DNA of 64,000 bases, taken from positions 19,042-83,041 of the forward strand of contig CAYOJH010000002.1 in the NCBI GenBank assembly GCA_964404275.1. Direction: 5' to 3'. This document shows positions 31,733-51,073 of the stretch, piece after piece. Below the pieces are notes generated by a model that saw only the letters and a list, made by a program, of their open reading frames with translations, was not told the origin of the DNA and did not search any database. A program made the translations under genes and the position numbers. How positions within the stretch are numbered: position 1 is the first letter of the stretch; every line of letters begins with the position of its first letter. The DNA is from an uncultured Gammaproteobacteria bacterium. Its GTDB lineage: Bacteria > Patescibacteriota > Patescibacteriia > SG8-24 > DYFX01.

Positions 31733-31764
31733 TCTGATGCCATCGTCCTTTGAAAGGGGGCCTC

Positions 31765-33049: not shown

Positions 33050-33088
33050 GCCGACCTCTTTTTCCTATGATACGTTTTCGACACACGT

Positions 33089-33937: not shown

Positions 33938-33965
33938 AAACGATCCCTTGAAAGGATCGTTTTTG
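33938..33965 (+). terminator. Rho-independent terminator
   Basis: ACGATCC-cttgaaa-GGATCGT followed by TTTT. Confidence 0.7.
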
Positions 33966-33966
33966 C

Positions 33967-35091: not shown

Positions 35092-35116
35092 AAGCTCCCC
35101 GCGCGGGGAGTTTTTT
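35092..35116. terminator. Bidirectional Rho-independent terminator
   Basis: CTCCCCGCGCGGGGAG palindrome with a T-run on both strands. Overlaps the stop of the minus-strand gene. Confidence 0.7.
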
Positions 35117-36285
35117 CAGAGATAGCCGAGCTCACGAAGAAGCGACTGCCGTTCCCAGATCGGACACGGCGCGTTCGTCCTGGCGGCGGTGACGGCCAGG
35201 CCGAAGCCGAGCTGCCGGGCCAAGACGCCGCGATTCTGGAGACAATCTTTCCATTGAAAAGGCCACCAGTCCCGATCGTCGCTCATCGCGCCCATCATCG
35301 CGCCGACCATCGAGGCGACGGTGTCGGTATCGCCGCCGGCGTTGATCGCTTCGAGCACGGCCGCCGTCGGCTCCTGATCTTCGCAATGCCGGTACCAGAT
35401 CGCGAGCGCGAGCGGCACGGTGTTGAGCGAGTCCGCGATGCCTTTGCTGCCGAAGGCCCAGAGCTCTTCCGGCTTGCCGGAGAGCGAGAGCGCGTGGTGC
35501 AGCGCGTAGGAGAAGCGGTCGCGGCCTTTGTGCAGCAGGTTCAGCTGCACGTCCGCCGTTTCGACGCGCGCCTTGAGCAGCGTGAACGCGCCCTCCGGTC
35601 CGAAGCCGCGGACCAGATCGTGGACGACGCTCGCGACCGCGTAGGCGGCGACCGCGCAGAGCGGATCGCCGTGCGTGATGCGGGAGAATTCGAGGATCTG
35701 CATCAACGCTTCGCCGGACGCGAAGACGTCGCTTCTGCCGCGCAGGGCCATGAAGGCCGCGAGCGGCGCGATCTTCATCGACGGGCCGTTGCCGCGGGCC
35801 TTCTCGCGCCGTTGCGCCGGATGCGCGGGATCGCGCGGCTGCGCGGCTTCCCAGAGCGTCCGGTCCGCCGGCTTCTTGAAGGCCGGCGGAGGATGTTTCG
35901 CGAACAGCTTTCGCCGCTCGCGGTACCACTTGTCGATCTCGTAGAGACCGCGCTTGGTGGTGCGACCCCAGCCGGAGACGTCGTTCCAGAGCGCCTTGAG
36001 ATGCAACAGCACTTGGAGCTCATGGACGTAGCCGTCACCCATGATCAGGCCGTCGGCCACGGCGTTCGCGAGCTGGCTGTCGTCCGACGTGGAGCCGGGC
36101 GGCAGGTCGCGCGTGTCGTCGATCTTGCGTTCGATCTTGAGATCGAATCGCGGCCGATCGACGCCGAAGCCGCCGGTCGCGTCCAAGATCTCCTGGCGCG
36201 TCATGCATTCGAACGGCACGCCGAGCGCGTCGCCGAGGTGGACGCCGAGCATCACATTGGCCAGTCGCTGTTTGCTATTGGACAT
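35116..36285 (-). CDS. ADP-ribosylglycohydrolase family protein (DraG/ARH-like)
   Basis: GDALGVPFE N-terminal motif and GGDTDTVASMVGAMMGA C-terminal motif. AAAAGGGG Shine-Dalgarno 5 nt upstream of the ATG at 36285. Confidence 0.75.
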   Translation of the reverse strand: MSNSKQRLANVMLGVHLGDALGVPFECMTRQEILDATGGFGVDRPRFDLKIERKIDDTRDLPPGSTSDDSQLANAVADGLIMGDGYVHELQVLLHLKALWNDVSGWGRTTKRGLYEIDKWYRERRKLFAKHPPPAFKKPADRTLWEAAQPRDPAHPAQRREKARGNGPSMKIAPLAAFMALRGRSDVFASGEALMQILEFSRITHGDPLCAVAAYAVASVVHDLVRGFGPEGAFTLLKARVETADVQLNLLHKGRDRFSYALHHALSLSGKPEELWAFGSKGIADSLNTVPLALAIWYRHCEDQEPTAAVLEAINAGGDTDTVASMVGAMMGAMSDDRDWWPFQWKDCLQNRGVLARQLGFGLAVTAARTNAPCPIWERQSLLRELGYL

Positions 36286-36384
36286 GCGGACCCCTTTTGA
36301 AAGAACGTGGGGGAGCGTAGCAGCGCGCGGGCGTTTCGTCCAGTCTCCCACCCGTGCTATCATAGTCCGGAAATTCCATCATTG

Positions 36385-36546
36385 ATGCGAAATCTCCTCC
36401 GCTTCGCCCGACGCAACAAGTTCCTGCTGATCGCCACGGTTTTGCTGATGGCGGGCGCGGGCTGCGTCGGCGCGGCGCGGCAGGCCAGCCAGCAGCTTTC
36501 GCAGGACGCGCAGAAGCCGATCGAAATTCCCGCCACGCAAAAATAA
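36385..36546 (+). CDS. Small putative lipoprotein or membrane peptide (53 aa)
   Basis: Signal-like FLLIATVLLMAGAGC with a lipobox-like AGC. Followed by a terminator. Confidence 0.4.
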   Translation: MRNLLRFARRNKFLLIATVLLMAGAGCVGAARQASQQLSQDAQKPIEIPATQK

Positions 36547-36573
36547 AGCCGTCCCTGAGAGGGGACGGTTTTT
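36547..36573. terminator. Bidirectional Rho-independent terminator
   Basis: CCGTCCC-tgaga-GGGACGG with T-runs on both strands. Confidence 0.7.
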
Positions 36574-37186
36574 AGAGACAGTGGTTGATCTGGCAGAAGT
36601 GCTGATGATCGATCATCGTGGTGTGCGTTCGGACGACCTTCGGCGTCATGAGGCTTTCGGCATCCTGCGCCTGATGTCCGAGTCCGCCAGCATGACCGAT
36701 CTCGTGTCCTGCGACGCCTTGCATCATCCAGGTCGCGTGCGGTCCCAGGAGCGGATTCAGCAGATCCGGATCCTCGTTGAAGATGACGATGTCGTCATTG
36801 TCGTAGAGGCCGGCGGCATCATCGGAACTCAGATGATAATCGTTCCACAGCTGCCGGCCGTAGTCGGTCAGGTTGTTGCGGTGCGCGTATTTCGTGTCGT
36901 TGATCAGCTGATAGACGCAGTGGACGCCGTCGCCGACGTTGTTCTCGTCGTACGTCGCCATCTCCGGCTTCTGGCCGCCGTAAGCGTAGGGCGCATTGCC
37001 CGTCGCCAGAGTCACGCCGGCGTTCCAGTCCGCGATCGCGGCTTGGATCTGCGTCAGCTGCGCGGGCTGCCACTCTCCGCAAGCGTAGACGGTGGCCGTC
37101 CGGCCTTCGGCGAACTCGGGATACGGACTGAGCGCGTTGCAGGCGGCCGAGAAGACGCAGAAACACGCGATGAGCATGGTCTTCAT
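36572..37186 (-). CDS. Secreted metzincin-type zinc metalloprotease (HExxHxxGxxH)
   Basis: Signal peptide MKTMLIACFCVFSAAC and zinc motif GHEIGHAGGLGH. GGGAGG Shine-Dalgarno 5 nt upstream. Confidence 0.75.
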   Translation of the reverse strand: MKTMLIACFCVFSAACNALSPYPEFAEGRTATVYACGEWQPAQLTQIQAAIADWNAGVTLATGNAPYAYGGQKPEMATYDENNVGDGVHCVYQLINDTKYAHRNNLTDYGRQLWNDYHLSSDDAAGLYDNDDIVIFNEDPDLLNPLLGPHATWMMQGVAGHEIGHAGGLGHQAQDAESLMTPKVVRTHTTMIDHQHFCQINHCL

Positions 37187-37234
37187 GGAAACCTCCCGGC
37201 CTCAATCTTCCATACTTTAGCGCAAATGTCAACC

Positions 37235-37263
37235 TTGCGAGGCGAACGAATCTCTTGTAGATT
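37235..37263 (+). promoter_or_regulatory. Candidate promoter for alaS (-35 TTGCGA, 17 nt, -10 TAGATT) ending 6 nt before the ATG (leaderless)
   Basis: Hexamers read from the sequence. No Shine-Dalgarno between the -10 and the ATG at 37270. Confidence 0.35.
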
Positions 37264-37269
37264 GCCCCT

Positions 37270-39072
37270 ATGACCACGAATGAAATCCGCTCGAAATTCC
37301 TGGATTTTTTCAAAGAAAAGGGCCACGCGATCATCCCTTCGGCCTCTTTGATTCCCGAAAACGATCCGACGGTGCTGTTCACGACGGCGGGCATGCATCC
37401 GCTCGTGCCATACCTGCTCGGCGAACCGCATCCGGCCGGCCGGCGCTTGGCCGACGTGCAGAAGTGCGTCCGCACCGGCGACATCGACGAAGTCGGCGAC
37501 AACCGCCACCTCACGTTTTTTGAGATGCTCGGCAACTGGTCGCTCGGCGATTACTTCAAGCGCGAGGCGATCACCTGGTCGTTCGAATTCCTGACCTCGC
37601 CGCGCTGGTTGAATCTCGATCCAGGACGCATCTACGTCACCGTCTTCGAAGGCGATGCCGATGCGCCGCGCGACTTGGAATCCGTCGCGATCTGGCAGGA
37701 CGCGTACCAAACGCGCGGCATTGAAGCGCGCTTCAACGAGCGCATCTTCGCCTATCCGAAAGACAAGAACTGGTGGGGACCGGCCGGCATGACCGGTCCG
37801 TGCGGTCCCGACACGGAAATTTTTTGGGACACCGGCCGTCAGCACGATCCGCGCCACGGCGCCGAGTGCCATCCGAACTGCGACTGCGGACGCTTCATCG
37901 AGATCTGGAACAACGTCTTCATGGAGTACAACAAGTCGGCGGCGGGCGCCTTCGAGCCGCTCGCGCAGAAGAACGTTGACACCGGCATGGGTCTGGAACG
38001 CGTCGTGGCGGTGCTGCAAGGCAAGTCGACGGTCTTCGACACGGAAAATTTTCAGGAGATGCTGGCCGCCGCCGGCGCGATCTGCGGCAAGACGTACGGC
38101 AAAAATGAAGACGACGACCGCGCCATGCGTATCGTCGTCGATCACGTCCGCACGGCCGTCTTCATGATCGGCGATCCGCGCGGCATCACGCCGTCGAACG
38201 TCGATCAGGGCTACATCCTGCGCCGCTTGATCCGCCGCGCCGTTCGTTATGGACGCCAGCTCGGCATCGAAGGCTTCTTCACGTCCAAAATCGCCGAGAA
38301 GGTGATCGAACTTTTCCGCGACGCGTATCCCGAGCTTGAAAAGAACCGCGATCGCGTGATCGGCGAACTCGACGCCGAAGAGGACAAATTCATGCGCACG
38401 CTCCAGAACGGCCTGCGCGAAGTCGAGAAGGTCAAGAAAGACCTGGAAGCCTCGCCGACCATTCCGGGCGAGACGGCCTTCTATTTGTACGAATCGTTCG
38501 GCTTTCCGAAAGAATTGACCGAGGAAACCGTCGGAAAGAAGGTGGACGAAGCCGAATGGCAAAAAGCCATGAAGGCCCACCAGGACCTTTCGCGCCAAGG
38601 CGCCGAGAAGAAGTTCAAGGGCGGCTTGGCGGACCACTCCTGGGAGACGACGCGCCTTCACACCGCCACGCATCTTTTGCATAAAGCGCTCCGCAACGTC
38701 CTCGGCGCGCACGTCGAGCAGAAAGGCTCCAACATCACCGCCGAGCGTCTGCGTTTCGATTTCTCGCATCCGAACAAGATGACGCCGGAAGAACTCAAGA
38801 ACGTCGAAGACATGGTCAACGAGGCCATCGTCCGCGATCTCCCCGTCCACTTCGAAGAGATGACCGTCGGCGAAGCCAAGCGCGGGGGAGCGATCGGCCT
38901 GTTCGAAGACCGTTACGGCGACAAGGTCAAAGTCTACGTCGTCGGCGATTATTCCAAGGAAATCTGCGGCGGCCCGCACGTCCAGCACACGGCCCAGCTC
39001 GGACGCTTCAAAATCTTGAAGGAGGAAGCGTCGTCGGCCGGCGTGCGCCGCATTAAAGCGATCGTTGAATGA
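37270..39072 (+). CDS. alaS: Alanine--tRNA ligase, short form lacking the C-Ala/DHHA1 domain
   Basis: Class II catalytic core ([23 protein letters not shown]), tRNA-recognition domain, and editing domain (HTATHLL...CGGPHV). Ends at 600 aa. Confidence 0.92.
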
Positions 39073-40034
39073 AATCCTATCTCGTCACCGGCGCCGCGGG
39101 CTTCATCGGCTTCCATGTCGCGAAGCGCCTGCTCGAGCGCGGCGACGCCGTGATCGGGCTCGATAATTTGAACGATTACTACGACGTTTCCTTGAAGGAA
39201 GCGCGTTTGGCGCGCCTGGCGCATCCGCACTTCCGTTTTGAAAAACTCGATATCGCCGATCGTGAAGGCATGAAGCGTTTTTTTGAAAAAGCCTCTTTTG
39301 ACGTCGTGATCCACCTGGCCGCGCAGGCCGGCGTGCGCCATTCGCTGACGCATCCCGAGTCGTACATCGACAGCAACCTGGTCGGCTTCGGCAACATCCT
39401 CGAGGGCTGCCGCCACAAAAAGGTCGCGCACCTGGTCTACGCCTCGTCGAGTTCCGTTTACGGCGGCAACACCGAGATGCCCTTCTCGACCTCGCAGAAC
39501 GTCGATCATCCGCTCAGCCTGTACGCGGCCACCAAGAAAGCCAACGAGCTCATGGCGCACGTCTACAGCCACCTCTACGCGCTGCCGACGACCGGCCTGC
39601 GTTTCTTCACCGTCTACGGTCCGTGGGGGCGTCCCGACATGGCGATGTTCTCTTTCACCAAAGCGATCCTCGAAGGCAAGCCGATCGACGTCTTCAATCA
39701 CGGCAAGATGCAGCGCGATTTCACCTACATCGACGACATCGCCGAGGGCGTGATCCGCGCAGCCGACCATCTGCCGGCGGGGGAGCCGCCCTACAAAATC
39801 TACAACATCGGCAACAACGCGCCGGTCGAGCTCGGTCATTTCATCGCCACGATCGAGAAAGCGCTCGGACGGGAAGCCAAGAAGAATTTCCTGCCGATGC
39901 AGCCCGGCGACGTGCCGGCCACCTACGCCGACGTGGACGACCTGATGCGCGACGTCGGCTTCAAACCCGCCACGCCGATCGAAGAAGGCGTTGACAAATT
40001 CGTCGCGTGGTACAAAGAATACTATCGTCCATAG
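39069..40034 (+). CDS. NAD-dependent epimerase/dehydratase (UDP-glucuronate 4-epimerase-like)
   Basis: [10 protein letters not shown] Rossmann, [18 protein letters not shown] catalytic YxxxK. ATGA overlap with alaS. Confidence 0.85.
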
Positions 40035-40042
40035 GAGGTCCG

Positions 40043-40417
40043 ATGCGGTTCTTTAAAACAGCGTCCTTGCTCACGTTCGCGTTCGCCGGGATCTGGCTCT
40101 TCCTGTGTTGGGATCTGATGATCGAAACGAGGGACATCCGAATCCTGCTCATTGCGGCCGTGCCGTCCGCTCCTGCGCTCCTCGGCCTGGTCGGGTGTGT
40201 CCTGTACGAGCGTTTCCGCGCGCCAGATGTTATCATCCGGGTGGCGCTCAAGCCGCTGCCCGAACGCTTCCTGCTTCAGGAACAGCGCCTCGAACAGCGG
40301 GAGCGGCTCAGGAAGCAGCTCTTCGATCTCAACTGCGAGATCGAGACCTTCAACGCCAACCTCGCGCCCGATGAACGCAAGGCCTGGAGGCATCGTCCAG
40401 GTCCCTACGGCAAGTGA
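40043..40417 (+). CDS. Hypothetical membrane protein (124 aa)
   Basis: AGGAGG Shine-Dalgarno 4 nt upstream. Two TM helices then a charged coiled-coil tail. Confidence 0.45.
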   Translation: MRFFKTASLLTFAFAGIWLFLCWDLMIETRDIRILLIAAVPSAPALLGLVGCVLYERFRAPDVIIRVALKPLPERFLLQEQRLEQRERLRKQLFDLNCEIETFNANLAPDERKAWRHRPGPYGK

Positions 40418-40418
40418 T

Positions 40419-40442
40419 CCGCCTTATTTAGGGCGGTTTTTT
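40419..40442 (+). terminator. Rho-independent terminator
   Basis: CCGCC-ttatttag-GGCGG followed by TTTTTTC. Confidence 0.6.
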
Positions 40443-40459
40443 CGTCCGTGAGGCCGCCC

Positions 40460-40488
40460 TTGACGCGTTCGGGCCGTTTTGTTAGACT
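40460..40488 (+). promoter_or_regulatory. Promoter P1 for the infA-rpoA operon (-35 TTGACG, 17 nt, extended -10 TGTTAGACT)
   Basis: Read from the sequence. Consensus-like -35 and a TGn-TAGACT -10. Confidence 0.5.
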
Positions 40489-40517
40489 TTCCGCAAGCAA
40501 AGTCCCCGCCTGGCGAC

Positions 40518-40546
40518 TTGCGTCATTTTTTGGTTCGGATTAGACT
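40518..40546 (+). promoter_or_regulatory. Promoter P2 (-35 TTGCGT, 17 nt, -10 TAGACT), a tandem copy of P1
   Basis: Same TAGACT -10 hexamer and 17-nt spacing, 58 nt downstream of P1. Confidence 0.45.
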
Positions 40547-40578
40547 ATCCGACACTTCAATAATTCTTGACGAGCAGA

Positions 40579-40815
40579 ATGCAGAATAACGGATCAGGAG
40601 GAGTGGGGAAGGATTTCATCGAAGCCGCCGGCGTCGTTGAAGAGCTTCTCCCCGCCACGACCTTTAAAGTGAAGCTCGAAAGCGGACACAGCATCCTGGC
40701 CCACCTCTCGGGCAAGATGCGCATGAACCGCATCCGTCTCCTTCCCGGAGACCGCGTCAAAATCGAGATGACGCCGTACGATCTCACCAAAGGCCGCATC
40801 GTCTACCGTTTCTAA
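40579..40815 (+). CDS. infA: Translation initiation factor IF-1
   Basis: S1-like fold sequence GVVEELLP...[32 protein letters not shown]. Confidence 0.9.
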
Positions 40816-40836
40816 CGCTCGTCATCAACGTCTCGC

Positions 40837-40953
40837 ATGAAAGTCCGCTCGTCCGTCAAAAAAATCTGCCGCGACTGCACGGTCATCCGCCGCAAGCGCC
40901 GCGTCATGATCATCTGCGAAAAGAACCCTAAGCATAAGCAGCGCCAGGGCTAA
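40837..40953 (+). CDS. rpmJ: 50S ribosomal protein L36
   Basis: Found by reading; it is below the 60-aa ORF-track cutoff. [38 protein letters not shown] has the C-x2-C...C-x4-H zinc ribbon. Confidence 0.9.
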
Positions 40954-40962
40954 TTTGACTTT

Positions 40963-41352
40963 ATGGCACGTATCGCAGGCGTTACCCTCCCGAACAACAA
41001 GCGCGTGATCATCGCCCTGACCTACGTCTACGGCATCGGCAAGACGCAGGCCAAGAAGATCATCGAAAAGACCGGCGTGAATCCGGACACGCGCGTCAAG
41101 GATCTTCCCGAAGCGGAAGCCAACAAGCTCCGCGACCACATCGAGAAGACCATGAAGGTCGAAGGCGAGCTCCGCCGCGACACGCTGGCGCAAATCAAGC
41201 GGCTCCGCGAAATCGGCTCCTACCGCGGCACGCGTCACGCCAAGAACCTGCCGGCCCGCGGCCAGCGCACCAAGACCAACTCCCGCACCACGCGCGGCAA
41301 TGTCCGCAAGACGATGGGCTCCGGCCGCGTCAAAGCGGGCATGAAGACCTAA
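40963..41352 (+). CDS. rpsM: 30S ribosomal protein S13
   Basis: [26 protein letters not shown] is the S13 N-terminus. Confidence 0.95.
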
Positions 41353-41373
41353 TCCGCCTCGACGTAAACCTTT

Positions 41374-41829
41374 ATGGAAGAAACCACGAACGTCATCGCC
41401 CCGGCCGAGGCCGACGCGAAGACGGAAGAAGGGAAGAAGTCCAAGGCGGCTCCTCGCAAGAAGACCAAGAAAACGGTCCGCCAGGTCTCCCACGGCCGCT
41501 GCTACGTGCAGGCGACCTACAACAACACGATCGTCACCCTGACCGACGCGAACGGCAACGTGCTGGCCTGGTCGTCCGCCGGCAAAGTCGGCTTCAGTGG
41601 CCCGAAGAAGTCCACGCCGTACGCCGCCTCGATGATCATCAAGGACGTCACCGAAAAGGTGAAGGATACCGGACTCAAAGACGTCAACGTCTTCGTCAAA
41701 GGCATCGGCTCCGGCCGCGAATCCGCGGTCCGCGCCTTGAACGCCAACGGCATCAACGTGCTCTCGATCAAAGACGTCACCCCGATTCCTCATAACGGCT
41801 GCCGGCCGCCGAAACCGCGCCGCGTGTAA
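41374..41829 (+). CDS. rpsK: 30S ribosomal protein S11 with an N-terminal extension
   Basis: C-terminal [20 protein letters not shown], with a K-rich N-terminal extension. Confidence 0.95.
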
Positions 41830-41832
41830 CCT

Positions 41833-42462
41833 ATGGGACGCAATACCGAACCCAAATGCAAACAGTGCCGGCGCGAAGGCGAGAAGCTCTATCTCAAAGG
41901 TGAGAAGTGCCTCGGTCCGAAGTGCCCGGTCACCCGCCGCGCGTTCCCTCCGGGCCAGCACGGTCCGACTTCCCGCGCCAAAATCACGCCGTTCGGCGTG
42001 CAGCTGCGCCAGAAGCAGAAGGCCAAGCGCATCTACGGCCTGATGGAAAAGCAATTCGAGAACTACTTCGTGAAAGCCGCCAGCCGCAAGGGCGACACCG
42101 GCGTCTTCCTGAAACAGTTCCTGGAAATGCGCTTCGACAACGTCGTCTACCGCCTCGGTTTCGCCAAGAGCCGCGCCCAGGCCCGCCAGATGGTCGGCCA
42201 CGGCCTGCTCACGGTCAACGGCAAGTCGGTCGACATCCCGTCGTACCAGCTCCGCGCCGGCGACATCGTCGCCATCAAGGAAAACAAGATCCACAAAGGC
42301 GCCTTCAAGGAACTGAAAGACCGCCTCTCCAAGCATCAGACCCCGGGCTGGCTCACGACCGACGCCGCCAACGCCACGGGCAAGATCATCAACCGCCCGA
42401 CGGCCGAAGAGCTCGAACAGAGCTTCGACGCCAAGCTGATCGTCGAATTCTACTCTCGCTAA
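41833..42462 (+). CDS. rpsD: 30S ribosomal protein S4
   Basis: N-terminal zinc ribbon CKQCRREGEKLYLKGEKCLGPKC and an S4 domain. Confidence 0.95.
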   Translation: MGRNTEPKCKQCRREGEKLYLKGEKCLGPKCPVTRRAFPPGQHGPTSRAKITPFGVQLRQKQKAKRIYGLMEKQFENYFVKAASRKGDTGVFLKQFLEMRFDNVVYRLGFAKSRAQARQMVGHGLLTVNGKSVDIPSYQLRAGDIVAIKENKIHKGAFKELKDRLSKHQTPGWLTTDAANATGKIINRPTAEELEQSFDAKLIVEFYSR

Positions 42463-42535
42463 TCCTTGGTCCGTCCCAGTGCCGCGCGGCGATTGCTGAT
42501 CTGTCGCGTCGCGTGCCGCAGGACTCCCAACCACT

Positions 42536-43351
42536 ATGGAAGACATTCTTCTTCCGTCGAAGATCGAAATCACTCCGACCGGGCGCGACAACGAGTCGAT
42601 GCTCGTCATGGAGCCGTTCTTCCACGGCTACGGCCACACGGTCGGCAACGCCCTTCGCCGGGTCTTGCTCTCGTCCCTCCAGGGCGCCGCGGTCATCGCC
42701 GTGAAGATCAAAGGCGCGTCGCACGAGTTCCAGGCCATCCCGAACGTCAAGGAAGACGTCCTCGAGATCATCCTGAACCTCAAGCAGCTCCGCCTGAAGG
42801 TGTTCTCCGATGAGCCGGTCAAGCTGACGCTTCACGCCAAAGGCGAGAAGAAAGTCACGGGCAAAGACATCCTGCCGAACTCGGACGTGGAAGTCGCCAA
42901 CCCGAACATGCACATCGCGACGCTCACGGACAAGTCCGGCGAGCTCGAAATGGAGATCACCGTGGCCAAGGGCCGCGGCTACGTCCCGACCGAGGAGCGC
43001 GGCAAGGAGCGCGGCGAACTCGGCACGATCGCCATCGACGCCCTCTACAGCCCGATCCGCTCGGTCGGCTACAAGGTGGACGACGTCCGCGTCGGCCAGA
43101 TCACCAACTTCGACAAGCTGACGCTCACGATCGAGACCGACGGCACGGTGGACGCCGACGAGGCCATCCGCTCGTCCGCTAAAATCCTGATCGACCACTT
43201 CGGTCTTCTGACCGGCCTCGCGGCCGGCGAGGCTCCGGCCAAGGCCGAAGCCGCCGAAGAAGCCTCCGGAGAAGCCGGAGAGGAATCGTCCGAACCCTCC
43301 GCCGACGGAGAAGAGAAGCCCAAGAAAAAGAAGGCTTCCAAAAAGAAATAA
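42536..43351 (+). CDS. rpoA: DNA-directed RNA polymerase alpha subunit, N-terminal domain only plus a charged tail
   Basis: The alpha-NTD is complete (EPFFHGYGHTVGNALRRVLLSS...). After about residue 228 the sequence is AAGEAPAKAEAAEE...KPKKKKASKKK, not a helical alpha-CTD. Confidence 0.9.
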   Translation: MEDILLPSKIEITPTGRDNESMLVMEPFFHGYGHTVGNALRRVLLSSLQGAAVIAVKIKGASHEFQAIPNVKEDVLEIILNLKQLRLKVFSDEPVKLTLHAKGEKKVTGKDILPNSDVEVANPNMHIATLTDKSGELEMEITVAKGRGYVPTEERGKERGELGTIAIDALYSPIRSVGYKVDDVRVGQITNFDKLTLTIETDGTVDADEAIRSSAKILIDHFGLLTGLAAGEAPAKAEAAEEASGEAGEESSEPSADGEEKPKKKKASKKK

Positions 43352-43353
43352 GT

Positions 43354-43704
43354 ATGCGCCATCGCGTTAAAGGAGCCATCTTGAGCCGAACGAAAGGGCC
43401 GCGCACCGCGCTGCTCCGCAATTTGGCGACCTCCGTCGTCTTGTACGAGAAGGTCAGGACCACCAAGGCCAAGGCGAAATTCGTCCGCCCGCTGGTCGAG
43501 AAGGCGATCACGATCGGCCGCGTCGGAACGCTCGCGTCCCGCCGCCAGCTGCATACGATGTTCACCCTCGAAAACGCGATCAAGAAGATCGTCGAGGAAC
43601 TCGGCCCCAAGTACAAGGGCCGCTCCGGCGGTTACACGCGCATCACGCCGCTCAAGCGCCGCGAAGGCGACGCCGCCGAGATGGTCATGATCGAACTGGT
43701 TTAA
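43354..43704 (+). CDS. rplQ: 50S ribosomal protein L17
   Basis: MRHRVKGAILSRTKGPRTALLRNLATSVV is the L17 N-terminus. Confidence 0.95.
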   Translation: MRHRVKGAILSRTKGPRTALLRNLATSVVLYEKVRTTKAKAKFVRPLVEKAITIGRVGTLASRRQLHTMFTLENAIKKIVEELGPKYKGRSGGYTRITPLKRREGDAAEMVMIELV

Positions 43705-43705
43705 T

Positions 43706-44071
43706 ATGCCGAGCACTTCCATCACCCGCAAAGCCGTCGAACTCGACGCCGCCGGACAGTCCGTCGGCCGCTTGGCGACGCAGATCGCGCGCATTTTGAT
43801 CGGCAAGCACAAGGCGACCTACACGCCGAACGTCGACGCCGGCGACACCGTCCGCGTCAAGAACGCGCACAAGCTCGTCCTGACCGGCAACAAGCAGGAA
43901 ACGAAACTCTACTACCACTACTCGCAGTATCCGGGCGGCATGAAAACCCGCGAAGCCAAGACCTTGATGGTCAAGGACCCGGGCAAGATCCTCCGCTACG
44001 CCGTCGATCGCATGCTCCCGAAGAACACGCTGCGCGCTCGTCGCATCAAGCGCCTGACGATCATCAAATAA
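43706..44071 (+). CDS. rplM: 50S ribosomal protein L13
   Basis: L13 family sequence (GRLATQIARILIGKHKATYTPNVDAGD). Confidence 0.92.
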   Translation: MPSTSITRKAVELDAAGQSVGRLATQIARILIGKHKATYTPNVDAGDTVRVKNAHKLVLTGNKQETKLYYHYSQYPGGMKTREAKTLMVKDPGKILRYAVDRMLPKNTLRARRIKRLTIIK

Positions 44072-44076
44072 GCGCT

Positions 44077-44571
44077 ATGACGACGAAGAAAGAACCCGCC
44101 AAAAAGACCGCCGCCAAGCACGCTCCGGCCAAAGCCGAAGCGAAAGCGGCTTCGAAGAAGCAAGTGAAGCACGAAGCCACCGGCACGTACGTCTACGCGC
44201 TCGGCCGCCGCAAGCGCGGCGTCGCCCAGGTCCGCGTCTACCTCGCCGGCAAAGGCAGCGTCACCGTCAACTCGAAGCCGATGAAGGACTACTTCCCGGT
44301 CGACGAGCTCCAGGACGCCGTGCTGTCGCCGCTCAAGGCCGTCGGCATGGACGCGACCGCCGACGTGGTCGCTTCCGCCCACGGCGGCGGCATCCGCGGT
44401 CAAGCTGACGCCGTCAAGCTCGGCATCGCCCGCGCCCTCCTGGTCCACAACCCCGATTTCCGCGCCACCCTGAAACCCCTCGGCGTCCTGACCCGCGACC
44501 CCCGCGAAAAGGAACGCAAGAAGTACGGTCTCAAGAAAGCCCGCAAGTCCCCGCAGTGGGCGAAACGTTAA
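44077..44571 (+). CDS. rpsI: 30S ribosomal protein S9 with a K/A-rich N-terminal extension
   Basis: GGGIRGQADAVKLGIARAL and C-terminal DPREKERKKYGLKKARKSPQWAKR. Confidence 0.93.
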   Translation: MTTKKEPAKKTAAKHAPAKAEAKAASKKQVKHEATGTYVYALGRRKRGVAQVRVYLAGKGSVTVNSKPMKDYFPVDELQDAVLSPLKAVGMDATADVVASAHGGGIRGQADAVKLGIARALLVHNPDFRATLKPLGVLTRDPREKERKKYGLKKARKSPQWAKR

Positions 44572-44580
44572 ACGCACCAG

Positions 44581-44607
44581 CTCCGCCGAAAGGCGGAGTT
44601 TTGGTTT
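44581..44607 (+). terminator. Rho-independent terminator after rpsI
   Basis: CTCCGCC-gaaa-GGCGGAG followed by TTTTGGTTT. Confidence 0.7.
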
Positions 44608-44640
44608 AGAAAAAACCTTCACGCGCGGGGTCGTGCACCA

Positions 44641-44994
44641 TTACGGTGCACGGCGGGGCGGGAAGGTGGCGGAGGCGTACTTGAGGAGGGGAGCGAGGAG
44701 CGTGTCGAACTTGAAGACGATGTCCGGTTCGCTCGGCAGGAGCCAGATGCGGCTGACGGAGCGCTGGAGTTGCTTGCCGCCGACCAGGAACTGGATGTCC
44801 GCGTCGAGTCCGCGCTCGATGACCGAGCGGCTGCGGCGCATGACCGAGCCGTAGATCGTTTGGTTGGTCTTTCGCTGGAACTCGGCGTAGACATCAACGA
44901 GCTTCTGGATATCGGCGCGGTTCCAGCCCTTGCGCTCGAGGTGTTGGAGAACGCCGATCAGGATGTGCTCGCTGTTCGCGGCGAAGACCTTCAC
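44641..44994 (-). CDS. Small hypothetical protein, paralog 1 of a tandem pair (117 aa; possibly a winged-helix regulator)
   Basis: GTG start overlapping the TGA of paralog 2 (GTGA). Aligns residue-for-residue with paralog 2 (RKGW, LVDVY, IYGSV, C-terminal FPPRRAP). Confidence 0.5.
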   Translation of the reverse strand: MKVFAANSEHILIGVLQHLERKGWNRADIQKLVDVYAEFQRKTNQTIYGSVMRRSRSVIERGLDADIQFLVGGKQLQRSVSRIWLLPSEPDIVFKFDTLLAPLLKYASATFPPRRAP

Positions 44995-45350
44995 GGCGCG
45001 CTCCGCGGCGGAAAGATGACATCCGCATGTTTGATGAGCGTGCGGTAATGCGGGTGGAGCGTGAGCGAGGCCGCGGCCGGAAGGCCGAGCGTCGTGAGCT
45101 GCACGCGGCTTACCGTCCGTTGGACGAGCTGGCGATTCTCGAGATCCTTGAGATCCTGTACGAGATCGTCCTTGAGCGCGCCTCGCGTCGGATTCCGCAC
45201 GGAGCCGTAGATCACGGCGCCGGTGGCGCGCTGGTACGCATCGTACACGTCGACAAGCTTGTCGACGTCGAGAAGATCCCAGCCCTTTTTGCGCAGATCG
45301 AAGATCAGGGCGAACAGGACTTGATCGTGCGTCGTGGCAATGATCGGCAT
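44991..45350 (-). CDS. Small hypothetical protein, paralog 2 of a tandem pair (119 aa)
   Basis: ATG at 45350 with a GGAGG Shine-Dalgarno 5 nt upstream. Ends FPPRSAP. The remainder of the longer ORF is an upstream extension antisense to nothing recognizable. Confidence 0.5.
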   Translation of the reverse strand: MPIIATTHDQVLFALIFDLRKKGWDLLDVDKLVDVYDAYQRATGAVIYGSVRNPTRGALKDDLVQDLKDLENRQLVQRTVSRVQLTTLGLPAAASLTLHPHYRTLIKHADVIFPPRSAP

Positions 45351-45447
45351 CCGAACCTCCGAATGGGTCCGGACTGAGCATAGCCATGACCGAGGCCGAC
45401 CGTCAAGGTTGATATTTTGCCTTGGAAATGGGAAAATAAAGGCGGAT

Positions 45448-46878
45448 ATGTCCGTCGCGCGGAACACCGCAACCCTGCTCGTCGCCTCGATTTTGCAGAA
45501 AATCCTGGCTTTCGCGTACTTCGCCGTGATCGCGCGGCTGGCCGGCGTGCACGATACCGGCACCTATTTCTTCGCGCTGTCGTGGACGCTGATGTTTTCG
45601 ATCGTGACGGATTTGGGATTGACCTCGGTCCTGATCCGCGAATCGGCTCGCGATCACGAGCGCGCGGAACACGTCTTGAATCAAGTGCTTTCGCTCAAGG
45701 CACCCCTCATCGCGCTCATGGCGATCGCCTCGATCGGCGCGGCCTACGTGACCGGCACGCGAGGAGTAGCGCTTCTGATGATCACGCTCGGCACGATCGT
45801 GCTGGCGCTCGATGCGACCTCCGTCACGTTTTACGGCCTGCTCCGCGGACACCACGTGCTCGTGTACGAAGGTATCGGCCTCGTGATCGGCCAATCGCTG
45901 ACGCTCGTGATCGGCGGCTTCCTGCTCGCGACGCACGCGCCGCTGTTCATGCTGATGTTCGCGATCGTCGCCGGCAGTTTTTGGAACGCCTGTGCGTCGT
46001 ATTACGTCGTCCGAACCAAGCTCAAGATCCATCCGCGCTTCGCTTGGAACCGCGCGCTCGCCAAGATGATCGTCAAGACCGCGATCCCGTTCGCGCTGGC
46101 GGGAGCGTTCGTGAAAATCTATACCAACATCGACGTCGTGCTGCTCACCAAGTTCGCGGGCGTGACGGCGGCCGGTCTTTACAGCGTGCCGTACAAGCTG
46201 ACCTTCGCGTTCCAATTCATCCCGCTCACCTTCACCGCGGCGCTCTATCCGGCCATGAGCCGGGCGTACGTCGAGGACAAGACCAAACTGGCCGACCTGT
46301 TCCACAAGGCGCTCTGGGCGCTCTCCATGATCGTCGCGCCGATTATCGCGGGGCTGGTCGCGCTCGGGCCGGAGATCGTCCGCGCGGTTTACGGCGCGGC
46401 CTATGCGCCGTCGATCCTGCCGACGCAGATCCTGATTTTCACGTTGATTTTCATCTTCCTCGATATCCCGATCGGCTCGCTCTTGAACGGTTCCGATCGA
46501 CAGGTCACGCAGACGACCTTGATGGGCGTCGCGATGCTCGTGTCGGTCATCTTGAACGTCGCGCTGATTCCCGTGATCGGCGTCATGGGCGCGGTCGCGG
46601 CCTCGCTCGTCAGCCATGCCGTGCTCTGTTTCGGCGGCTTGCACGCGATCGACAAGTTCCTCGCCTGGCCGCGTCTCCGATTCTTCGGCTTGGCGCTCAG
46701 GATCGCGCTCGCGGCCGGCGGCATGGGCGCGGTCGTCTGGCTCGCCAAGCCGCATCTCCCGCTGATCGCTTCGGTGCTCCTGGGCGGCCTGGCTTACGCC
46801 TTTTTTTCCTTCCTCTTCCGTACCGTCTCCGCGGACGATCTCCGCGATTTGACCGGACGGATTTTGAAACGCGCCTGA
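45448..46878 (+). CDS. Polysaccharide biosynthesis flippase (MOP/MATE-like, Wzx family)
   Basis: About 14 TM helices. AAGGCGG Shine-Dalgarno 4-5 nt upstream of the ATG at 45448. Confidence 0.7.
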   Translation: MSVARNTATLLVASILQKILAFAYFAVIARLAGVHDTGTYFFALSWTLMFSIVTDLGLTSVLIRESARDHERAEHVLNQVLSLKAPLIALMAIASIGAAYVTGTRGVALLMITLGTIVLALDATSVTFYGLLRGHHVLVYEGIGLVIGQSLTLVIGGFLLATHAPLFMLMFAIVAGSFWNACASYYVVRTKLKIHPRFAWNRALAKMIVKTAIPFALAGAFVKIYTNIDVVLLTKFAGVTAAGLYSVPYKLTFAFQFIPLTFTAALYPAMSRAYVEDKTKLADLFHKALWALSMIVAPIIAGLVALGPEIVRAVYGAAYAPSILPTQILIFTLIFIFLDIPIGSLLNGSDRQVTQTTLMGVAMLVSVILNVALIPVIGVMGAVAASLVSHAVLCFGGLHAIDKFLAWPRLRFFGLALRIALAAGGMGAVVWLAKPHLPLIASVLLGGLAYAFFSFLFRTVSADDLRDLTGRILKRA

Positions 46879-46888
46879 ATTCCATCGC

Positions 46889-47986
46889 ATGAAATCTTTT
46901 TTCAACCGCTATCGCGCGCACCAGAAAGGCTTCAGCTCGCGTTTCCGTTTCATGAAGGCCGCGCATGAGATGGGTGGAAAAAAAATCCTGCTCGTCACGT
47001 ACGAATATCCGCCCGACCTGGGCGGCGTGGCCAGTTACCTCGGAGGACTCTTCGGCGCGCTGCCGGAGGTGCGCGTGCTGAAGCTTCCGCAGCCAAAATT
47101 CCCGTTCGCCTGGCTCCTGCAATTGCCGAAGATGTGGAAAGCCGCCCGCGCGGCGGATCTTGTGGCCGTTTCGCATCTCCTGCCGCTTGGCACGGCGGCC
47201 ATGCTCTTAGGAAAACCGTACGTCGTCGTCGTCCACGGCCTCGATCTGCGCCTGGCGCGCCGAAAGAAAGGTCTGGCGTCGCGCGTCTTGAAGAAGGCCA
47301 GGCTCATCGTGGCCAACAGTCGCTCGACCGCTTCGGAATTGCCGTTCTTCGGCCTGCCGGCCGCGTCGGCGCTCGTCCTGACGCCCGGGTTCGATCCTTC
47401 GTTCGAAAAATTCGCCGAAAAGGCGGGGCACTCCGCCTTCCAGGCCTCGCTCCTGTCCGTCGGCCGGTTCGTGCCGCGCAAAGGCTTCGACCGTTTGATC
47501 GGCCTCTTGCCCAAGCTGCGCGAACGATGTGGCGACGTGATGCTGATTTTGGCCGGCTCCGGTCCGGAAGAGGGGAAGCTCCGCCAGGAGGCGAAGAAGC
47601 TCGGCATGAGCGCCCACGTCCAGTTCGTGATCGCGCCGGATCGCGTCACCCTGGCCGCCCACTACTGGGCCTGCGAAGTTTTCGCGCTGGCGGCTCGCGC
47701 CTCCGAAGATGACGTCGAAGGCTTCGGCATCGTCTGCCTGGAAGCCGCGCTGTTCGGCAAGCCGGTCGTGGCCACGCGCGCCGGCGGCCTGGCCGAAGCG
47801 GTGGCGGACAATGAAACGGGCCTTCTGGCCGATCCCGGTTCGGACCAAGAGCTGCTGGAAAAACTCGCTTCGCTTTTCGCGGACCATGAGCGGGCGCGCC
47901 GTTTGGGCGCAGCCGGACGCGCGCGCGTCCTGCGCGACTTCCGCTGGGAAGACCGCGCGAAACTGTTGCGGGAACGCCTGGCATGA
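46889..47986 (+). CDS. Glycosyltransferase family 4
   Basis: EGFGIVCLEAALFGKPVVATRAGGLAEAV...GLL is the GT4 E-x7-E region. The start may be a downstream ATG. Confidence 0.8.
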   Translation: MKSFFNRYRAHQKGFSSRFRFMKAAHEMGGKKILLVTYEYPPDLGGVASYLGGLFGALPEVRVLKLPQPKFPFAWLLQLPKMWKAARAADLVAVSHLLPLGTAAMLLGKPYVVVVHGLDLRLARRKKGLASRVLKKARLIVANSRSTASELPFFGLPAASALVLTPGFDPSFEKFAEKAGHSAFQASLLSVGRFVPRKGFDRLIGLLPKLRERCGDVMLILAGSGPEEGKLRQEAKKLGMSAHVQFVIAPDRVTLAAHYWACEVFALAARASEDDVEGFGIVCLEAALFGKPVVATRAGGLAEAVADNETGLLADPGSDQELLEKLASLFADHERARRLGAAGRARVLRDFRWEDRAKLLRERLA

Positions 47987-48690
47987 AAAAAATTTCCGTC
48001 ATCATCCCGTGCTACAACCACGCCTCCACGATCGGCCGCTGCCTGGAGAGCGTTTTCGCGCAGACGTACGAAAACGTCGAAGTGATCGTGGTTGACGACG
48101 GCTCGCGGGACGCGCTGGATGCCGCCCTCGCGCTGTTTCGCGATCGCGTCCGCGTGATCCGCCAGCACAACCAAGGCGGACCCGCCGCCCGCAACCGCGG
48201 CTTCCGCGAATCGACGGGCGACTTCGTGATGTTCTGCGACGCCGACGCGCGTTTGCGGAAAGACGCCCTTGAAAAATTGTCGGCGGCGCTCGAGGCGCAT
48301 CCCGAAGCGGCCTACGCCTATGCTTCTTTCAGATTCGGCTGGAAAAAATTCCCGCTCGGTCCGTTCGATCCCGAACGCCTCAAGAAGCATAATTACATCC
48401 ACACGGGGTCCTTGATCCGCCGCGAAGCCTTTCCGGGTTTCGACGAGACGCTCAAGCGCTTCCAGGACTGGGACCTTTGGCTTACGATGATGGAGCAAGG
48501 GAAGACCGGCATTTGGGTTCCCGAAATGCTGAGCAAGGTCCACGTCTCCTCGAAGCGAGGCGGCATCTCGAATTGGCTGCCGAAATTCGTCTACCGTCTG
48601 CCCTGGCGCCTGCTCGGCTGGAAACCGAAGCGCCTCTCCGACTACGAAGAGGCCGCGACCGTGATCCGAAAAAAACATCGCCTGGCATGA
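47983..48690 (+). CDS. Glycosyltransferase family 2
   Basis: ISVIIPCYNHAST...VIVVDDGSRD and DxD motif FCDADA. ATGA overlap with the previous gene. Confidence 0.8.
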   Translation: MKKISVIIPCYNHASTIGRCLESVFAQTYENVEVIVVDDGSRDALDAALALFRDRVRVIRQHNQGGPAARNRGFRESTGDFVMFCDADARLRKDALEKLSAALEAHPEAAYAYASFRFGWKKFPLGPFDPERLKKHNYIHTGSLIRREAFPGFDETLKRFQDWDLWLTMMEQGKTGIWVPEMLSKVHVSSKRGGISNWLPKFVYRLPWRLLGWKPKRLSDYEEAATVIRKKHRLA

Positions 48691-49574
48691 GCCGTCCCGC
48701 CGATCTCTCGATCGTGACCGTCAACTGGAAAGTCGCCGAACTGGTCGGCGAGCTTTTGGGCTCGATCGAAGCCAACAAAGAAGATTTGGCGCTCGAGATT
48801 TTCGTCGTCGACAACGATTCCCGTGACGACCTCGAAAACGTCGTCACGCGTTTCAAGAATCGCTCCGGCATTCCGATCACGCTGATCAAGAACGCGCGGA
48901 ATCTCGGCTTCGCGGCCGCCAATAACATCGCGCTGCGCCGCGCCTCCGGCCGCTACGTCGCCCTGCTCAATCCCGACGCACGCGCGACGCACGGATCCTT
49001 GAAAGCCATGCTTTCCTGGATGGACGCGCATGCGGACGTCGGCATCGCCGGCCCGAAACTCTTGAACGTCGACGGTTCGCTTCAGGCGTCAGTCCGCCGC
49101 TTTCCGACGCTTTGGGATCAGACGCTGATTCTTTTGAAAGTCCAGCACCTCTGGCCCGACGCGCCCGCTTTCAAGCGATACCTGGCGAAGGATTTTGACT
49201 ACGCGAAAGCGCAGGACGTCGATCAGGTCATGGGCGCCGCCTTGTTCGTGCGCCAGGACGTGTTCAAGAAGATCGGCCTGCTCGACGAGGCGTTTTTCAT
49301 CTGGTTCGAGGAGGTGGATTTCTGCAAACGCGCCAAGGACGTCGGCTGGCGCATCGTGTATACACCCATAGCCTCGTTCATCCATCACGGCGGCGCCAGC
49401 TTCGCCAAGGCGATGACCTTCAAGAAACAGCGCTATTTCACGAACAGCATGCGGATCTATTTCGCCAAGCATCGCGGCGCTTGGACGAGCGTCGTGCTGG
49501 CGCTGCCGATGCTCTTCGGCCTCGGTTCCGCCGCGCTCTTTTCCCTATGGACTTCCGCACCCCGCAAATCGTGA
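48687..49574 (+). CDS. Glycosyltransferase family 2 (rhamnosyltransferase-like)
   Basis: LSIVTVNWK...IFVVDNDSRDD and LLNPDA. ATGA overlap with the previous gene. Confidence 0.75.
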   Translation: MSRPADLSIVTVNWKVAELVGELLGSIEANKEDLALEIFVVDNDSRDDLENVVTRFKNRSGIPITLIKNARNLGFAAANNIALRRASGRYVALLNPDARATHGSLKAMLSWMDAHADVGIAGPKLLNVDGSLQASVRRFPTLWDQTLILLKVQHLWPDAPAFKRYLAKDFDYAKAQDVDQVMGAALFVRQDVFKKIGLLDEAFFIWFEEVDFCKRAKDVGWRIVYTPIASFIHHGGASFAKAMTFKKQRYFTNSMRIYFAKHRGAWTSVVLALPMLFGLGSAALFSLWTSAPRKS

Positions 49575-51073
49575 AAAAACACCTGCCGCTTTTCGTGTTC
49601 CTGCTGTCGGGAACGCTCGAGATGGTGTCGTATTGGGGCTGGCACGCGCCCGAGGTGCGAATTTCGGCGCTGGCGTTCCTCGGCATCGGAGCGCTCGTGC
49701 TGGCGTGCCTTGACTTGCGCTGGCTCTTCGCCCTGGTCCTGATCGAAGCGGTCATCGGCAGCCATGGCCGCCTGTTCTTCGCCGACGTCGGCGGCTTCTC
49801 GCTCTCGCTCAGGATGACGCTCTTCGCCGTCCTGGTCGCGGGCTGGACGCTGCACGCCGCGCGGGGCTGCGCCCGCATCCTGCACTTTCGCCACGTGCAC
49901 GTGGCGGGACCGCTCCTGCTGCTCGTGGCCGCCGTGACCTTGGCGTCCGTGCGCGGCTGGGGGATGGGCGCGCCGCTTTCCGAAATTTTCAACGACGCGA
50001 ACGGGTACGCCTTTCTGCTCCTGATCCCGATCGGACTCGACCTCTTCGCCGACCGTCCGGCCTTCGCCTGGCTCTTGCGGGCGCTCTCCGGCGCCGTCGC
50101 CTGGCTCTGCGCGAAGAGCTTGCTGCTCTTGTATGTCTTTTCGCACTCGTTCAAAGGCGGCTTCTTGCCGGATCTCTACGCTTGGCAGCGCAAATTCGGC
50201 CTGACGGAGATCACGCATCTTTCCGGCGGGGCGGTCCGCGTCTTCGCCGCTTCGGACGTCCTGTTGATTCCTGCGCTCGCGCTCGGCGCGCTCTTCGCCT
50301 GGGAAACGAAGCGCCGCTCCGTTTTCCTGTGGACTTCGCTCGTCGGGGCGACCTTGCTGCTCAGCTTGTCGCGCAGCTTCTGGCTCGGCCTGATGGTCGC
50401 GACGACCTTCATGCTGCCGGTCCTGCTGCGCTTCGAGCTCGCGCCGCTCCGCGCGCTCGGCCGGCTGTTCTTGAAAGGCTGCTACGCGATCCTGCTCGGC
50501 GCGGCCCTGCTCGCGGCGCTCGTGCTTTTCCCGCTGCCCAAGCCGGCCGCGAACGCCTCCGCCTGGTCGGTCTACGGCGGACATTTCGTCGACGCGAGCG
50601 ACGCGGCCGTTTCGAGCCGCTGGAACATGCTTCAGCCTTTGCATGACGGCATCGCCGCCGCGCCGATCCTGGGCTCCGGCTTCGGGGCGCAGATCACGTA
50701 TCACTCCGACGATCCGCGCATGCAGGATCTGTATCCGGGCGGCGCCGTCACGACCGGCGCGATCGAATGGCAGTACCTCGAAATCTGGTTCAAGATGGGC
50801 CTCTTCGGCCTCCTGGCCGTGTTTTGGCTGTGGTGGCGGATCGGCCTGCTCTTCTGGAAAACATTCGAGACGGCCCGGGGAGAGGACCGTCTCGTGGCCG
50901 CGGGCTTGATGCTGTCGTTCCTGGCCTTCGTCGTCGCCAATTTGTTCACGCCGTACGTCAATCATCCGCTCGGCTGGTGTTTCCTGACGCTCGTGATCGT
51001 CGGCTTCCATGCCGCCGAAGAACACGCGCGGCCCGAACATCACGAGGTTCCTAGGCCAATTCGGCTCCGTTGA
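49547..51073 (+). CDS. O-antigen ligase / polymerase-like membrane protein (Wzy_C family)
   Basis: Polytopic, with SLSRSFWLGLMV (SR..WL motif of the O-antigen ligase family) and a large loop. Confidence 0.6.
   Translation: MDFRTPQIVKKHLPLFVFLLSGTLEMVSYWGWHAPEVRISALAFLGIGALVLACLDLRWLFALVLIEAVIGSHGRLFFADVGGFSLSLRMTLFAVLVAGWTLHAARGCARILHFRHVHVAGPLLLLVAAVTLASVRGWGMGAPLSEIFNDANGYAFLLLIPIGLDLFADRPAFAWLLRALSGAVAWLCAKSLLLLYVFSHSFKGGFLPDLYAWQRKFGLTEITHLSGGAVRVFAASDVLLIPALALGALFAWETKRRSVFLWTSLVGATLLLSLSRSFWLGLMVATTFMLPVLLRFELAPLRALGRLFLKGCYAILLGAALLAALVLFPLPKPAANASAWSVYGGHFVDASDAAVSSRWNMLQPLHDGIAAAPILGSGFGAQITYHSDDPRMQDLYPGGAVTTGAIEWQYLEIWFKMGLFGLLAVFWLWWRIGLLFWKTFETARGEDRLVAAGLMLSFLAFVVANLFTPYVNHPLGWCFLTLVIVGFHAAEEHARPEHHEVPRPIRLR

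Follow-up and report, generated by a model that had tools for sequence, protein, structure and literature searches.

The subject of this report is rpoA, the gene for RNA polymerase's alpha subunit, as it occurs in a stretch of 64,000 nucleotides (64 kb) of the contig CAYOJH010000002.1, hereafter the window. The window has a GC content of ~62%. The open reading frame (ORF) at 42536-43351 on the forward strand is a genuine rpoA of an ultra-small bacterium of the Patescibacteria with a high-GC, Uhrbacteria-like genome, and is the sole one visible. Pfam, NCBIfam and the operon position support this identity. The gene runs from an ATG to a TAA stop codon (43349-43351, forward strand) and encodes 271 residues. 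Three parts can be told apart in its product. The N-terminal domain (alpha-NTD), responsible for dimerisation and for beta/beta' assembly, takes up residues 1-228 (42536-43219). Further, an acidic low-complexity segment, residues 229-260 (43220-43315), is predicted to be disordered and is probably a retained interdomain linker. The protein then ends in a basic terminal motif, KPKKKKASKKK, residues 261-271 (43316-43348), which is proposed here as a DNA-contact element. All three parts lie on the forward strand.

The genes around rpoA follow the order infA-rpsM-rpsK-rpsD-rpoA-rplQ-rplM-rpsI (cluster 40567-44571), and the place of rpoA in the alpha operon (rpsM-rpsK-rpsD-rpoA-rplQ) is the conserved bacterial arrangement. 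Directly upstream on the same strand is rpsD (S4, 41833-42462). Downstream, rplQ for ribosomal protein L17 (43354-43704, forward strand; PF01196, E 2.8e-30) begins 2 nucleotides past the rpoA stop, immediately after rpoA as a sequence-only reading of this locus had stated, and the space for a C-terminal domain (alpha-CTD) is thus nil. Two ribosomal genes of the cluster, rpsK (41374-41829) and rpsI (44077-44571), encode Lys/Ala-rich N-terminal extensions of ~40 residues; the Pfam domains start only at residue 42 of S11 and residue 43 of S9. Basic low-complexity extensions, therefore, are a wider habit of the nucleic-acid-binding proteins of this genome.

Domain content and distribution of CTD-less alpha subunits

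The alpha-NTD is intact, as the sequence-only reading had it. Pfam matches PF01000 to residues 56-172 (E 3.9e-33) and PF01193 to residues 26-222 (E 2.4e-23), and the GNALRRVLLSS motif is kept along with other invariant assembly residues, including R41 and R42. PF03118, the Pfam family of the alpha-CTD, finds no match in the 271-residue protein even at E<=1. The NCBIfam rpoA models are covered only over the first ~245 of their ~300-340 positions. Two of them are passed (TIGR02027, 266.7 against a cutoff of 227.8; NF003519, 286.3 against 277), and six other PRK05182 sub-models score under their own cutoffs because the CTD portion is missing. Similarly, the solved RpoA chains of M. tuberculosis, B. 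subtilis, Thermus and E. coli, with an identity of 45-50%, align to residues ~5-250 of the query only (E ~1e-50 to 1e-61). Residues 9-235 of the E. coli alpha correspond to residues 5-229 of the query, and residues 15-226 of the M. tuberculosis alpha also align to the alpha-NTD. The folded part of the protein thus stops where the interdomain linker of E. coli starts. An AlphaFold2 model, computed from an alignment of 44 sequences, gives a predicted local distance difference test (pLDDT) score of >90 over most of the NTD, places the last helix at residues 207-228 and falls to <50 for residues 234-271. What had been described as nothing more than a low-complexity tail and a stop codon past residue ~228 is the stretch of residues 229-271.

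The protein shares with the canonical RpoA (E. coli, B. subtilis, T. thermophilus and M. tuberculosis; TIGR02027) the orthology of the alpha-NTD, the place in the operon and a flexible segment that starts near E. coli residue 235. The canonical proteins go on to a helix-hairpin-helix alpha-CTD (PF03118) that serves UP elements and activators, whereas the window protein ends in 43 residues predicted to be disordered. It is a member of the RpoA family without the family's canonical third feature. An alpha-NTD-like assembly platform lacking an alpha-CTD is also found in the archaeal Rpo3 (subunit D) and the eukaryotic Rpb3/AC40. However, the window alpha scores only 25.7 bits against a cutoff of 153 with the archaeal subunit D model NF001988; it is of the bacterial, homodimer type and is encoded in a bacterial alpha operon.

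Could the domain have been hidden by a frameshift or a misassembly, or does it come in trans from another rpoA copy or a stand-alone gene? The frames of the window give no sign of it: when all six, over the whole 64 kb, were scanned by profile hidden Markov models (HMMs) and phmmer, with E. coli, B. subtilis and Thermus CTDs as probes, the best alpha-CTD match reached only an E of 0.9. Among the species representatives of GTDB, 34 loci encode a CTD-less alpha, and at these loci an iterated CTD HMM, searching every frame over +/-3 kb around rpoA, detected nothing that resembles a CTD; as a positive control, it recovered the CTD at 46 of 46 CTD-bearing loci. These scans rule out a frameshift or a hidden CTD, and the claim that the domain is truly absent and not frameshifted holds. 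As to a supply in trans, 17 Patescibacteria CTDs were made into a profile and searched against a set of 5.8 billion proteins; this low-power search retrieved only 19 short proteins. The context of three was examined; two are split rpoA fragments beside rplQ, and one is a phage-like protein next to DnaB. A stand-alone CTD acting in trans is thus without support, within the low power of the test.

Two side observations belong to this subject. On two low-coverage metagenome contigs of CTD-bearing relatives (L085:3342-4255 and L086:527-1502), rpoA is called as at least two overlapping pieces, an NTD gene and a short CTD gene, directly ahead of rplQ. Sequencing frameshifts are the probable cause, and calls of this type probably give rise to false 'stand-alone CTD' proteins in the databases. 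Further, a 112-residue stand-alone alpha-CTD-like protein (PF03118) heads a run of small genes that includes one for a DnaB-type helicase (L081:413-751, L082:365-703); it is present on six contigs, in a phage- or mobile-element-like setting. Such split genes and phage-like proteins, together with the fact that the scan for a CTD or a second rpoA in the organism's own genome spans the 64 kb of the window, are what an artefact or a domain in trans has in its favour. The same architecture recurs in more than 150 independent assemblies, rplQ begins 2 nucleotides past the stop, and no CTD appears in any frame of the window or the 34 loci. An incomplete picture of this kind is, therefore, scarcely credible.

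The loss of the CTD is real and is a property of large clades rather than of one genome. The best 120 homologues are all 237-291 residues long and match PF01000 and PF01193 only; those with source names are labelled Patescibacteria group, Parcubacteria or Uhrbacteria. An identical protein is on record on an NCBI contig of 90.6 kb. The 34 CTD-less loci carry the names Uhrbacteria, Falkowbacteria, Buchananbacteria, Veblenbacteria, Magasanikbacteria, some Moraniibacteriota and plain Patescibacteria. In all 31 loci with a readable flank, rplQ follows the CTD-less rpoA after 1-101 nucleotides. The domain has not gone from the whole radiation. Of the 150 best-matching representatives (50% clustering), 81 have a CTD and ~45 are proteins that credibly lack it and have low-complexity tails, the remainder being fragments or frameshifted calls. 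CTD-bearing sequences exist within the Patescibacteria group (P0127, P0130, P0134), and further ones come from Woykebacteria, Parcubacteria and one Moraniibacteriota genome (L040, L041, L024). CTD loss is thus clade-specific inside the radiation. The large free-standing clades with CTD loss have genomes of ~0.9-1.2 Mb.

In a rough neighbour-joining (NJ) tree, the window sits in a large CTD-less crown group. A Moranbacteria-type trio of CTD-less sequences (L027, L036, L071) clusters instead with CTD-bearing sequences in 196 of 200 NJ bootstraps; its identity is 62-73% to these CTD-bearing relatives and 47-57% to the crown group. The CTD was thus lost independently at least twice, a tree of this crude type on 209 columns not fixing the exact number of events. 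The Moranbacteria-type CTD-less group likewise terminates in lysine runs.

The titles of some database records deserve a remark. Several public metagenome-assembled genomes with a Patescibacteria-type CTD-less rpoA and alpha operon are titled 'uncultured Gammaproteobacteria bacterium' (L006, L009, L012, L019, L020, L023, L028, L029 and L032), and one record titled Bdellovibrionales is CTD-bearing (L026). These records look mislabelled.

CTD-less alpha subunits are already on record for the endosymbionts Hodgkinia and Tremblaya and for the chloroplast rpoA of Euglena, and a single sentence in print extends the loss to Parcubacteria (PMC8321222). The paper cited there for Parcubacteria has no discussion of RNA polymerase in its main text, and rpoA appears only in its core-gene table (PMC4508563). 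As in the clade of the window, the alphas of Hodgkinia, Tremblaya and Euglena keep the alpha-NTD, lack the CTD and belong to reduced genomes. Their case is described as erosion, however, with no conserved replacement tail reported, whereas the loss in Patescibacteria is repeated, spans large clades and is accompanied by a conserved terminus, either basic or AT-hook-like. An account of such a terminus, of a retained linker or of repeated loss was not found in the literature searched, which left out most subscription journals. Thus, the loss itself had been mentioned for Parcubacteria; the conserved terminal tail, the retained linker and the repeated loss seem to be new.

The two-part tail and its AT-hook-like relatives

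The tail of 43 residues (229-271) reads AAGEAPAKAEAAEEASGEAGEESSEPSADGEEKPKKKKASKKK, as had been quoted from the sequence alone. Its first 32 residues (229-260) contain 11 D/E and 1 K; the last 11 (KPKKKKASKKK), which are free of acidic residues, contain 8 K. The chain thus carries a block of net charge of about -10 followed by one of +8. Eight lysines in 11 positions is the densest lysine window among the ~19,400 residues of the predicted proteins of the window, and the binomial probability of such a run at the local lysine frequency of 5.5% is ~1.3e-8.

The two parts have evolved very differently. Over 64 close homologues, the mean pairwise identity is 0.87 in the NTD, 0.44 in residues 229-258 and 0.81 in the last 13 residues, with P262, K263, K265 and K270 almost invariant. 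The window clade has the terminal consensus (E/D)(E/D)KPKKKKASKKK. When the window is compared with the locus L001, whose protein is 91% identical, the last 14 codons show 4 synonymous and 0 non-synonymous changes. Lysine-rich ends are found in loci that span 31% to 62% GC. From these comparisons, selection appears to act on the basic end. The acidic segment is most likely the NTD-CTD linker, retained as a fast-evolving, Ala/Glu-rich chain; it is read as the old linker because the CTD-bearing relatives in the Patescibacteria carry charged low-complexity linkers of 40-80 residues, unusually long ones, at the same position.

These numbers also bear on the suggestion that the tail is a neutral relic, in which a leftover linker and a few lysines persist without function after the deletion of the CTD and leave behind a CTD-less basal enzyme. 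The fast evolution of the linker, at 0.44 identity, is what such a relic would show, and in some lineages the tail is acidic only or almost absent. It is also known that the alpha-CTD of E. coli is dispensable for assembly and for basal transcription in vitro (PMC8321222). Against it stand a terminal motif conserved at 0.81, which is about the level of a folded domain, and differing from L001 by synonymous changes only, and a lysine-rich end that is kept over 31-62% GC and recurs after an independent loss. The near-invariant RGRP core of the sister clade, described below, is hard to explain without selection. A functionless remnant is, therefore, distinctly improbable.

Two other origins of the lysine codons were considered and rejected. 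The codons might serve as the ribosome-binding region of rplQ; however, lysine-rich ends persist where the gap between rpoA and rplQ is 74 or 101 nucleotides, and AAA and AAG vary synonymously. A programmed -1 frameshift on the A-rich run might yield a fusion of alpha with L17. It is true that rplQ lies in the -1 frame relative to rpoA in the window, and that this frame is open for 171 nucleotides upstream of the rplQ ATG, over two (G/C)-AAA-AAG runs (43316-43356). The -1 frame is closed, however, in related loci with longer gaps. The open frame ahead of rplQ is a by-product of T-poor sequence.

All the CTD-less sequences collected were sorted by tail: 135 join an acidic segment to a basic end, 13 have an acidic tail alone, 11 a very short one, and 10 terminate in an AT-hook-like KKRGRPKK. 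The last class was followed through the 120 best homologues of an AT-hook-type protein (P0125), which are 63-100% identical to it and some of which are named Falkowbacteria. In this sister clade, the KKRGRPKK terminus is present in 108 of the 120, the other 12 having lysine runs, and G, R, P and the next K are conserved at 90% or more, level with the core residues of the NTD. The leading match to a DNA-binding family other than RpoA is the Pfam AT_hook (PF02178, a model of 13 positions), found in 40 of the 120. The best E is 0.021 and the scores of 9.5-13 bits lie under the gathering score of 17.4; the motif is, therefore, termed AT-hook-like only. It has the GRP core and basic flanks, in a disordered setting, of the AT-hooks known from HMGA proteins.

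The lysine-run and AT-hook-like tails are probably homologous, although this is said tentatively and from comparison of the tails. Many tails of the sister clade have the lead-in (E/D)(E/D)KPKKK in common with the window tail, and intermediates between a lysine run and RGRP can be seen in KPKKKRGRSKKK and KPKKKISKTKK; by a simple pattern, the acidic-then-PKK lead-in is present in just 46 of the 120 homologues. The two clades agree in a median tail length of 48-49 residues, in a linker of negative net charge (medians of -7 and -12) and in 7-8 K/R among the last 12 residues. The window tail has the flanks of an AT-hook, that is, basic residues (8 K in the last 11) in a disordered region (pLDDT <50). 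The GRP tripeptide that forms the core of the hook is not present in KPKKKKASKKK, where KAS stands in the place of the sister clade's RGRP.

A possible upstream-DNA contact

Through the alpha-CTD, the polymerase holds A/T-rich UP elements by their minor groove and offers activators a docking site (PMC8321222). When this domain is lost, what can be left for the polymerase to hold the upstream DNA with? We consider it moderately probable that in this lineage, which has lost the alpha-CTD, the remaining alpha-NTD carries, in its two-part disordered tail of ~43 residues, a basic end that partly replaces the upstream-DNA contact. The sequence-only reading had suggested that the K-rich end could contact DNA, and comparison lends support to this idea: the end is conserved almost like the NTD, it recurs after independent loss, and KKRGRPKK stands in its place in 108 of 120 sister-clade proteins.

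The geometry would suit such a role. It is established from structures that the C-terminus of the alpha-NTD, to which the CTD linker is attached, faces the upstream DNA, and the tail would leave the enzyme at this very point. Since each polymerase has two copies of alpha, there would be two flexible tethers per enzyme reaching towards the DNA upstream of the -35 element, a distance that a disordered chain of ~43 residues could bridge. Lysine-rich disordered regions are known to bind DNA with low specificity, and the AT-hook binds the AT-rich minor groove, the same sort of DNA target as that of the alpha-CTD. The basic end may thus bind the upstream DNA electrostatically, via the backbone or the minor groove and with little sequence specificity, and may stand in partly for the UP-element type of contact. 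The acidic block could act as a spacer, as an internal partner of the lysines or as a repeller of nonspecific nucleic acid. The activator-docking surface of the CTD would be lost outright, and regulation would then have to go through sigma factors and through repressors or other factors independent of the alpha-CTD. The KKRGRPKK of the sister clade leads us to see in the window tail a minimal tethered DNA-contact module.

A precedent for such an arrangement is CarD of M. xanthus, in which an RNA polymerase-binding domain is followed by an acidic region of ~50 residues and four RGRP hooks, the tail being disordered (PMC4374960, PMC8156234). This HMGA-like tail contacts the minor groove of promoter-upstream AT tracts, at -63 and -77, and histone H1's lysine-rich region can take its place (PMC4374960, PMC8156234). 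The order of a polymerase-attached module, a disordered acidic stretch and a basic end is the same as in the alpha tail, and the choice between an AT-hook and a lysine run is mirrored between the alpha clades of the Patescibacteria. It is on this precedent that the basic end is proposed as a minimal anchor to upstream DNA. The likeness is one of analogy, not of homology: CarD is a separate factor that binds beta via its CarD_CdnL_TRCF domain, whereas the alpha tail belongs to a core subunit, is far shorter than the CarD tail and contains at most a single hook. Pfam finds no match to CarD_CdnL_TRCF (PF02559) in the window alpha.

The tail could also be functional in another way. The acidic block might mimic nucleic acid, with the lysines as its internal regulator, or the basic end might work on nascent RNA, ribosomes, the nucleoid or the clustering of polymerases. 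The charge blocks of about -10 and +8 do resemble those of self-interacting polyampholytes, the basic extensions of S11 and S9, encoded in the same operon, bind RNA, and some lineages have tails that are acidic only. A comparable case is the delta subunit of B. subtilis, whose acidic tail clears nonspecific nucleic acid and which has a lysine tract. However, the AT-hook-like core of the sister clade points to minor-groove DNA and not to RNA or protein, the tail is attached where an alpha-CTD linker would be, facing upstream DNA, and CarD, with the same acidic-then-basic order, is a proven DNA binder. A role away from the upstream DNA is, on balance, rather unlikely.

Several observations weigh against the upstream-contact proposal itself. 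CTD-less lineages exist with acidic-only tails, or with alphas of 232-238 residues that have almost no tail, so a basic end is not needed for a working CTD-less polymerase. The window tail, having no GRP, is not an AT-hook. As basic low-complexity extensions are common on the nucleic-acid-binding proteins of this genome, such as S11 and S9, the tail could reflect this general trend and not a promoter contact. The linker, being negative in net charge, might also work against an attachment to DNA. In the region from 30000 to 49999, promoter motifs are not enriched over shuffled sequence, and a signal of upstream AT tracts is not established. Lastly, the scan for a second source of the CTD in the organism's own genome covers the window, as noted above.

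A broader proposal may be put forward more tentatively: in large parts of the Patescibacteria, a minimal, disordered reader of DNA carried on a charged tether, AT-hook-like in one clade and a lysine run in that of the window, may have taken the place of the folded alpha-CTD on more than one occasion, such that the upstream contact was kept and the docking of activators was dropped. We hold this to be possible and short of probable.

Regulation in the window and wider significance

The sequence-only reading had also seen a fit between the missing CTD and short, consensus-like promoters in the window. This did not hold up: the scan of 30000-49999 gave 5 sigma-70-like matches against 3.6 +/- 2.1 in shuffles, which lends the suggested fit no support. 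One plausible promoter site lies upstream of infA (40460-40488), past a terminator-like hairpin. An Rfam scan of the window returned zero matches. Activator-independent transcription, which had been read from the absence of the CTD, is a reasonable inference resting on the known roles of the alpha-CTD. Among the Pfam-scanned ORFs, which cover most of the window, no activator-type transcription factor could be recognised. The sole transcription regulator recognised is a sigma factor of the ECF type, with regions 2 and 4, which overlaps the start of a 262-residue DUF5667 protein (27308-28626, forward strand); the two are likely a sigma/anti-sigma pair. The presence of an ECF sigma factor with no activators seen is consistent with the proposal, as weak evidence.

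Other genes of the window have unusual builds of their own. In a 695-residue SecD/SecF-type protein (20910-22997, forward strand), the N-terminal P1 part of SecD is separated from the P1 head by an inserted PpiC-type peptidyl-prolyl isomerase domain (~273-388), an unusual fusion of a translocon subunit with a foldase. The alanyl-tRNA synthetase (37270-39072, forward strand) has only 600 residues, which comprise the catalytic core plus the second additional domain, and goes no further; it appears to lack the usual C-terminal domain, one more instance in this genome of a protein with a domain trimmed off. The ORF at 25328-27241 (forward strand) encodes a type IV coupling protein that is VirD4/TrwB-like and bears a treble-clef zinc finger. 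Upstream of it, an ORF of 616 residues (23481-25331) has no Pfam match and holds the second-densest lysine window of the region. Downstream of rpsI, on the reverse strand (~44640-45560), are two adjacent paralogous ORFs with the pattern KGW..(D/A)(V/I).KLVDVY...QR.T...IYGSV in common and the terminus FPPR(R/S)AP.

For annotation, the practical lesson is that CTD-less rpoA genes are easily mistaken for truncations. The finding also bears on the reconstruction of transcription in organisms that are mostly uncultured, and short DNA-anchoring tails of this kind may offer a design idea for engineered polymerases. As a model, the conserved lysine-rich or AT-hook-like stub is a simple and testable one for a minimal contact with upstream DNA. 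In the textbook view, UP elements and many bacterial activators make their contact at the alpha-CTD, and a large and abundant radiation that does without it would show that this regulatory layer is not universal. If the broader proposal is true, class I-type activation through alpha would be missing from a major bacterial radiation, and these organisms would constitute a natural experiment that separates the two functions of the alpha-CTD, the upstream contact and the docking of activators.

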